Shown in pieces: positions 467 to 931 of a stretch of 20,747 nt of DNA; position 1 is the stretch's first letter; each line of letters opens with the position of its first letter. Origin of the DNA: Escherichia coli (GTDB taxonomy: Bacteria > Pseudomonadota > Gammaproteobacteria > Enterobacterales > Enterobacteriaceae); assembly GCF_003334765.1 (NCBI RefSeq), contig NZ_QOWT01000049.1. One strand, 5' to 3'. The notes beneath the pieces are model-generated. The model did not search any database. It was not told the DNA's origin and saw only the letters and a program-made list of their open reading frames with translations. Made by a program: the position numbers and the translations under genes.

Positions 467-750
467 ACGTCATCTTGGGTGTAGTGACTTTTAACGTCAG
501 GTGATGCATAAGGGTCTTTCGCGGAGAGGCCCTGTTTACACAATTAAATAAGTCGAGTCCTCTAGGCTGGGCTGTGTGCACGCCCCCCCGTTCAGCCCGA
601 CCGCTGCGCCTTATCCGGTAACTATCGTCTTGAGTCCAACCCGGTAAGACACGACTTAACGCCACTGGCAGCAGCCATTGGTAACTGGATAGTGGATTTA
701 GATACGCAGAACTCTTGAAGTTGAAGCCTTATAGCGGCTACACTGGAAGG

Positions 751-860
751 ACAGCATTTGGTATCTGTGCTCCATCAAGCCAGTTACCACAGTCGATTAG
801 AAGAGGTCGAAGACTTCTAATCGGACGGAAAAAGCCGCCGCAAGGCGGCTTTTTCCGTTT
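751..860 (+). ncRNA. RNA I-like antisense copy-number control RNA of a ColE1-type replicon
   Basis: Starts acagcatttggtatctg (ColE1 RNA I starts ACAGUAUUUGGUAUCUG). Three stem-loops can be drawn: ggtatctg...cagttacc; cgattagaag...cttctaatcg; and terminator gccgcc-gcaa-ggcggc followed by ttttt. Upstream promoter-like TTGAAG (715-726, duplicated) and gctacact (about 737-744). Confidence 0.55.
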
Positions 861-869
861 ACAAGCCGA

Positions 870-898
870 AGATTACGCGCAGCTTAAAAGGATCTCAA
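870..898 (-). promoter_or_regulatory. RNA II (primer RNA) promoter-like element of the ColE1-type module
   Basis: On the minus strand: -35 TTGAGA (complement of 893-898), 17-bp spacer, -10 TAATCT (complement of 870-875). Same arrangement as the ColE1 RNA II promoter; the transcript would run leftwards across the RNA I gene. Confidence 0.4.
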
Positions 899-931
899 GA
901 AGATCATTTTAATTTTGCTGATCGTTGCGCC

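Follow-up and report, generated by a model that had tools for sequence, protein, structure and literature searches.

What a ColE1-type replication control region is doing near the left end of an Escherichia coli contig is the question raised by a 20,747-nt stretch of NZ_QOWT01000049.1 (assembly GCF_003334765.1), hereafter referred to in its entirety as the window. A sequence-only reading of this DNA had noted that some 350 bp strongly resemble the overlap of RNA I and RNA II in ColE1/pMB1, and had offered two explanations, either a fossil of a captured ColE1-like plasmid or part of an unusual replicon; it had also raised the possibility that RNA I could act in trans against related plasmids. 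The first explanation holds up, as the region is chromosomal, lacks an origin and has island backbone on both sides, and the second does not. The whole block is most probably what is left of a small ColE1-family plasmid bearing a tle1-tli1 T6SS effector-immunity pair, a fragment that cannot replicate and is in decay, and whose immunity pseudogene had been overlooked. The features located in and around this block are listed in Table 1.

Table 1. Features of the plasmid-derived block and of the island DNA surrounding it (window coordinates).
Feature	Position	Strand	Description and basis
Left flank, island backbone	78..560	+	3' side of YagK/YfjJ / inovirus-Gp2-type module; not plasmid-derived
Whole plasmid-derived block	560..1666	.	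ColE1-type tle1-tli1 plasmid remnant; blastn, alignments
RNA II primer precursor, 5' portion	567..862	-	~296 nt; alignment with ColE1 and pS19_141-f
RNA I promoter	715..744	+	-35 TTGAAG 715-720, 18-nt spacer, -10 TACACT 739-744; ColE1 alignment
RNA I antisense RNA gene	751..860	+	5' tail ACAGCAUU, three stem-loops, the third being the terminator; Rfam, folding
RNA II promoter	870..898	-	-35 TTGAGA 898-893, 17-nt spacer, -10 TAATCT 875-870; ColE1 alignment
tli1-like lipoprotein pseudogene	932..1635	-	DUF2931, Tle1 immunity family; Pfam DUF2931 E 5.7e-29, alignment
tle1-like (DUF2235) T6SS phospholipase gene end	1646..1666	-	last codons ...ALDGLF and stop; rest deleted
Right flank, island backbone	1667..1917	.	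contains isrK-like RNA, upstream of SNF2 gene; Rfam RF01394
DrmD-like SNF2 helicase	1936-4785	+	PADLOC
IetA	4811-5791	+	PADLOC
IetS	5801-8188	+	PADLOC
Type III Mod	8198-9826	+	PADLOC
Type III Res	9829-12699	+	PADLOC

RNA I, RNA II and their promoters

An Rfam cmscan search identified a full-length RNAI (RF00106) match on the plus strand at 753-858, spanning model positions 1-102 of 102 and scoring 59.9 bits against a gathering score of 47 (E = 6e-09). With the same tool the RNA I sequences of pS19_141-f, pEA5_2, pSTEC17_183-a and ColE1 scored 59.8, 63.5, 64.5 and 73.8 bits, respectively, and the window copy, a bona fide member of RF00106, scores as well as the RNA I of working replicons. The 110-nt segment 751-860 is predicted to fold into an 8-nt single-stranded 5' tail followed by three hairpins at -54 kcal/mol (z = -8.8, with shuffled sequences at -25.6 ± 3.2 kcal/mol), and its minimum-free-energy structure is identical to its centroid structure. 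The terminator consists of a hairpin and T run at 837-858, where a consensus scan independently flagged a terminator-like site at 837-849. The Rfam, folding and terminator results thus bear out the 5' end, three stem-loops and terminator that had been described from the letters alone, and the loops are indeed diverged, stem-loops 2 and 3 being almost wholly unlike those of ColE1 in sequence.

The RNA I start was assigned to A751 and the RNA II start to the vicinity of G862 on the minus strand by alignment to ColE1 (NC_001371). RNA I lies antisense to the 5' end of RNA II and has its own promoter, and the start sites of both transcripts align unchanged to ColE1, as do the hexamers of both promoters, in keeping with the earlier view that these promoters are intact. 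A consensus promoter scan listed neither of them; by hand count, RNA I matches the consensus at 4 + 4 of 12 positions with an 18-nt spacer and RNA II at 5 + 3, and both fall below the match rules of the scan, so they were assigned via the ColE1 alignment instead. This assignment of the hexamers follows the known ColE1/pMB1 promoter maps, which we take to apply at both promoters, the RNA I promoter having the same geometry.

In the RefSeq annotation the ColE1 part is marked only by a 48-aa "replication initiation protein", WP_072172747.1, at 572-718 on the plus strand. The same kind of call is made inside ColE1's own origin region, and WP_072172747.1 is probably a spurious ORF.

Extent of the block, its cargo and the missing origin

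In ColE1 replication, a hybrid of RNA II with DNA at the origin is cut by RNase H and primes Pol I, and the textbook RNA II pre-primer is 555 nt in length (PMC11012335). More than 5,000 ColE1-type plasmid records match window positions 500-960 by blastn, and every alignment begins at 560. In an alignment of the window with two complete small plasmids and with ColE1 (NC_001371), the homology is clean from CTGGGCTGT (window 567) onward and ambiguous over 561-566; leftward, ColE1 and the complete small plasmids extend through the origin motif GGCGTTTTTCCATAGG. The equivalent of the breakpoint in pS19_141-f is 243 bp from this motif and the RNA II start is ~540 bp from it, in agreement with the textbook pre-primer length; from these distances the window retains ~296-303 nt of RNA II and no origin. 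The alignments with ColE1 and the complete plasmids showed that the remnant has neither GGCGTTTTTCCATAGG nor the 243 bp that run up to it, and with them has lost the 3' portion of RNA II containing the hybrid-forming region, the RNase H site and the downstream priming signals. The retained stretch contains the entire RNA I target and the RNA II G-run (C7 on the plus strand, 584-590). Because homology starts ~243 bp short of the origin motif, the remnant cannot prime replication. The left end of the similarity had been placed near 565, which agrees well with the 560-567 found here, but its distance from the origin had been put at about 300 bp, which is to be corrected to ~245 bp (243 bp in pS19_141-f). 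The database search proposed at that time gave ColE1-family alignments, and the similarity does not reach leftward into a complete origin. The block is not a functional ColE1 replicon: it has no full-length RNA II running to an origin, is not extrachromosomal and has no Rop gene, although Rop is common rather than obligatory in ColE1/pMB1 replicons.

On the other side, the plasmid-derived DNA does not end at 915, as had been supposed, but continues to 1666. Its junctions lie at 560-567 on the left and 1666/1667 on the right, and over 560-1666 local blastn gave identities of 95.8% to pEA5_2, 91.3% to pSTEC17_183-a and 89.1% to pS19_141-f; the control region taken separately is closest to pSTEC17_183-a (98.3%). 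Searches of the 20.7-kb window with blastn and tblastx confined the homology to the parent plasmids to 560-1666, or to ~1690 at the translated level, and neither the origin nor the rop, mob, ProQ/FinO or ANR genes of these plasmids were found elsewhere in the window by the same searches. Since there is no plasmid homology outside 560-1666, there is no sign that the adjoining defence cluster came with the same plasmid.

The parent plasmids are arranged in the order Rop, origin, RNA II/RNA I, tli1 and, in some, tle1, and it is the tli1 pseudogene within the fragment that identifies their type. Proteins of the DUF2931 family are Tli1 immunity partners of Tle1 T6SS phospholipases (PMC10395195). 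The window tli1 retains a signal-peptide-like start, MRRLPLMVGVIVGVMLAVGC, and the DUF2931 domain, and the adjoining effector gene is reduced to its last codons; in the alignment with pS19_141-f and pSTEC17_183-a, a DUF2235 gene of 1692 bp continues there past the window's right junction. Translation and alignment against the intact 234-aa alleles of strain A24 and pS19_141-f revealed a frameshift in tli1, in which a run of seven A residues stands in place of eight near 1479, shifting the frame after codon 52. RefSeq annotates two ORFs across the pseudogene. In the 5-7-kb plasmids pS19_141-f and pEA5_2, the Tle1/Tli1 pair, or Tli1 alone, is located directly beside the RNA II promoter. The plasmid tle1/tli1 genes run in the same direction as RNA II, and no other T6SS gene is annotated there, so that the effector travels on a small multicopy plasmid. 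Taken together, the remnant is real and slightly larger than had been described, but it is ordinary plasmid debris in a mosaic island.

Chromosomal setting and decay among E. coli genomes

The window is part of a chromosomal tRNA-Phe (pheV-type) island. Over its first 3 kb it is 100% identical to closed chromosomes from O104:H4 and a number of further E. coli strains, and its first 2.2 kb are at least 99.8% identical to 042 and E24377A. In O104:H4 2011C-3493 the order is yqgA, tRNA-Phe, an integrase, IS1, a short hypothetical ORF and the remnant, followed by the SNF2 gene, an AAA ATPase, an S8 peptidase, a methyltransferase, a helicase, IS debris and pic. The locus sits between yqgA/tRNA-Phe and pic in closed chromosomes of 4.8-5.6 Mb and is chromosomal in every closed genome that has it, which answers the earlier call for a check of chromosome versus plasmid. 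That the contig is really a plasmid, or the block a functional if unusual replicon, is accordingly a reading to which we give almost no credence: RNA I and an RNA II promoter are all that speaks for it, and against it the origin, the downstream priming signals and the region of the RNase H site are missing and the locus is embedded in complete chromosomes. It was rejected on the chromosomal context.

IS1 (about 1-77) cuts into the left flank. Strain WP8-S17-ESBL-12 has the left backbone up to the same base as the window, with unrelated DNA beyond it, and no empty site with contiguous left and right flanks was found; the WP8-S17-ESBL-12 junction indicates that the remnant lies at a module boundary and is not a simple insertion with target duplication. 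The right flank contains an isrK-like RNA on the minus strand at 1721-1800, a full-length RF01394 match (56.8 bits against 50) whose two 5' hairpins each contain compensatory changes. This RNA lies between the plasmid remnant and the SNF2 gene, far from any Gifsy-type prophage, and 127 bp around it (1692-1818) are ~79% identical to "ash family protein" loci of ~1,000 E. coli chromosomes. Downstream, PADLOC profiles delimit a defence-gene cluster on the plus strand at 1936-12699, with no other DISARM partners near the SNF2 gene. Fragments of IS3 and IS66 and a group II intron reverse-transcriptase pseudogene occupy 13080-16150, ahead of an intact pic serine-protease autotransporter gene at 16158-20276; the O104:H4 reference has an extra IS30 within this stretch, in the part where its length differs from that of the window.

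Of 5,426 complete E. coli genomes surveyed, 66 have the right junction, identical throughout, and 54 have the left junction or the ColE1 part, with none of either on plasmids. The remnant is immediately upstream of the SNF2 gene in all 66 genomes having the right junction. ColE1/pMB1 origins are the commonest vector contaminant, and both vector contamination and misassembly of a resident plasmid were considered. Such an artefact is exceedingly improbable given the same junctions in 54-66 independently sequenced closed genomes, stem-loops 2 and 3 that are strongly diverged from prototype ColE1, and nearest relatives that are natural tle1-tli1 plasmids; it was rejected because the junctions recur across assemblies. 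At an unrelated locus, the chromosome records of Nissle 1917 (NZ_CP007799, 5204329-5204558) and strain 8600 contain a 230-bp ColE1-origin-like match (84.6%) resembling the 3.2-kb cryptic plasmids of those strains, which may be an integration or an assembly artefact.

The chromosomal copies occur in three states. In the first, that of the window (~50 of 66 genomes), RNA I is intact and tli1 is frameshifted. In the second, represented by at least three genomes (A24, CFSAN004176 and CE0026a), a 31-bp deletion (832-862) has left RNA I without its terminator and the 3' half of stem-loop 3, and RNA II without its start; A24 and CFSAN004176 retain an intact tli1 of 705 bp, and CE0026a has a further 1-bp deletion at 930 and an annotated tli1 gene of 627 bp. 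In the third (TW10573, M217, 98215 and others, ~12 genomes), homology begins only at ~1055, which leaves nothing of the ColE1 part and a tli1 without its 3' end. Accordingly, Rfam no longer calls RNAI in A24, CE0026a or TW10573, while the adjoining isrK-like RNA scores identically in these and all other locus variants checked.

These three decay states support the interpretation of the block as a plasmid fossil, as do the full-length RNA I and intact promoters in a sequence whose homology to complete replicons stops 243 bp before the origin motif, the chromosomal location of the block in every closed E. coli genome with the locus, its position next to IS1, an integrase and tRNA-Phe, and a separately truncated copy of the module found on a 112-kb IncF plasmid. 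Less easily accommodated are the ~50 genomes without an inactivating change in RNA I or either promoter, a lineage in which RNA I could conceivably still have a function; many of these, however, are close relatives (O104:H4 outbreak isolates), so that the intactness of RNA I may only reflect recency, and by the same token the evidence of decay is carried by few independent lineages. Likewise, if the block is pure debris, its constant linkage to the defence-gene cluster is explained only as hitch-hiking.

A second interpretation, which we regard as possible but distinctly less likely, is that the block was kept for its cargo: an orphan Tli1 may have protected the cell against T6SS-delivered Tle1, and the ColE1 control region would have hitch-hiked. 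The 705-bp tli1 gene is intact in A24 and CFSAN004176, which is precisely the lineage without RNA I, the parent plasmids carry tle1-tli1 adjoining the origin, and the Pfam match assigns the product to the DUF2931 family of Tle1 immunity proteins (PMC10395195). Against this, most genomes belong to the window lineage and have a tli1 whose frame is broken after codon 52, and ~12 others lack the 3' part of the gene, so any selection for tli1 would have been transient or lineage-specific. Retention for cargo is compatible with the block being a decaying plasmid fossil, and could explain why it was retained initially.

Substitutions among the chromosomal alleles are unevenly distributed. All seven substitutions of BEC1-S17-ESBL-09 fall within 563-775, as do ~25 of the 28 in CE0026a, leaving 0-3 substitutions in the remaining ~900 bp of the block; with an even distribution, the chance of finding seven of seven in that 18% of the block is ~7e-6. 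The substituted sites include 755 in the RNA I 5' tail and 775 in RNA I loop 1, and several of the substituted states equal alleles seen in plasmids. This pattern is most simply read as conversion of the locus in patches by passing ColE1 plasmids rather than as purifying selection acting on RNA I, suggesting that the remnant may still exchange sequence with resident ColE1 plasmids via homologous recombination.

Possible action in trans and comparison with known systems

The RNA I of ColE1 reportedly exerts incompatibility in trans, according to the classical work of Tomizawa and Itoh. It is possible in principle, although not favoured, that the chromosomal RNA I does the same. As a domesticated incompatibility determinant, it would pair with RNA II whenever a ColE1-family plasmid whose loops match enters the cell and block primer formation, lowering plasmid copy number or preventing establishment, and would have been retained as an anti-plasmid element for that reason. 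In favour of this, the window lineage has preserved RNA I together with its promoter and terminator, the living plasmid pS19_141-f has exactly the same loops 2 and 3, and the remnant always adjoins the DrmD-like SNF2 / IetAS / type III R-M cluster. The mechanism is also established, as RNA I supplied in trans blocks primer formation by its cognate RNA II through loop-loop kissing (PMC11012335). Retention for this purpose is nonetheless improbable on the comparative evidence: only one chromosomal lineage out of three still has RNA I, its tail and loop 1 vary among the chromosomal alleles, and its 5' tail, stem 1 and loop 1 differ from those of every related plasmid examined. Among the 5,426 complete E. 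coli genomes, no plasmid record is at least 99% identical over the control region (700-915) and only 29 records are 95-99% identical, making cognate plasmids too rare for co-occurrence (exclusion) statistics to have any power. Strain SCPM-O-B-9427 carries the remnant together with a 7.9-kb ColE1-type plasmid of an 82%-identity class, as expected if non-cognate plasmids are unaffected. The more specific proposal, that the window RNA I is an anti-plasmid RNA made constitutively from a defence island, stocking the cell with inhibitor in advance and blocking establishment of incoming ColE1 plasmids of the tle1-tli1 group with shared loops, so that incompatibility would serve as host immunity, is fainter still. 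An active RNA I would make the locus a simple example from nature of plasmid incompatibility encoded in a chromosome, but selection for such a role is at odds with the comparative data.

The behaviour expected of a plasmid fossil is more modest. A 1.1-kb piece of plasmid spanning the RNA II interior, RNA I, both promoters, tli1 and the last codons of tle1 would have become fixed between two backbone modules of the tRNA-Phe island, the origin, the 3' half of RNA II, rop and nearly all of tle1 having presumably been lost from the plasmid. Its two constitutive sigma-70 promoters probably still fire, giving an RNA I of ~108 nt and a truncated RNA II that would run out into the island backbone. With the origin-proximal DNA absent, this RNA II would yield no primer, being unable to form the origin-proximal RNA-DNA hybrid or an RNase H-cut primer. 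The two RNAs would mainly pair with each other, the co-transcribed RNA II 5' fragment, itself a perfect target for RNA I, acting as a sponge, and at single-copy dosage the surplus of RNA I should amount to about one plasmid-copy equivalent of inhibitor. A very small effect is predicted: one copy of inhibitor would matter little to a multicopy plasmid, and then only to one with matching loops. Given so small a surplus, the block is best read as selectively neutral debris; if anything in it was once selected, it would be the orphan tli1 immunity gene. The locus appears to record the carriage of T6SS effector-immunity pairs by small ColE1 plasmids, parts of which land in the pheV-type island of EAEC/O104:H4-type strains. 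A search of the literature turned up no account of an RNA I or a ColE1 remnant in the chromosome at this island.

The likeness to ColE1/pMB1 lies in the convergent RNA II and RNA I promoters with invariant hexamers, an RNA I of ~108 nt with a tail and three hairpins, and a conserved RNA II core (567-685) that is ~95% identical to that of ColE1. Unlike ColE1, the window module is chromosomal and single-copy and is missing the 3' ~245 nt of RNA II, the origin and rop, and its stem-loops 2 and 3 have hardly any sequence in common with those of ColE1. Closer relatives are the small plasmids pS19_141-f (E. coli, NZ_CP075646, 6.7 kb) and pEA5_2 (E. albertii, NZ_CP117577, 5.3 kb), which are collinear with 560-1666 at 89-96% identity and share with the window the order RNA II region, RNA I, RNA II promoter, DUF2931 gene and DUF2235 end. 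In contrast to the window, both have a complete origin, Rop and an intact 234-aa Tli1, pS19_141-f has a full Tle1, and their RNA I differs from that of the window in the 5' tail, stem 1 and loop 1.

The 112-kb IncF plasmid pSTEC17_183-a (NZ_CP075653) likewise carries an origin-less, truncated copy of the module, at 6001-7110 of the examined plasmid stretch. Its left breakpoint is ~50 bp further toward the origin than that of the window, its tle1 and tli1 are intact, and its RNA I loop 1 reads CCACUAA where the window has CCAUCA. The differing breakpoint marks an independent truncation event, which suggests that such plasmids have been captured repeatedly with loss of the origin; one plausible cause of this loss is that an active high-copy origin would be harmful inside a low-copy replicon or chromosome. 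PLSDB/MOB-suite lists a ColRNAI replicon on pSTEC17_183-a despite its origin-less copy, so remnants of RNA I without an origin can mislead replicon typing, and the annotation of the window could do so as well.

Orphan T6SS immunity genes are known from the chromosomes of Vibrio and Bacteroidales. In these, as in the window, an immunity gene lacking its effector is found beside the debris of mobile elements. The window differs from them in that the immunity gene is a pseudogene in this lineage and was brought in by a fragment of a ColE1 plasmid.
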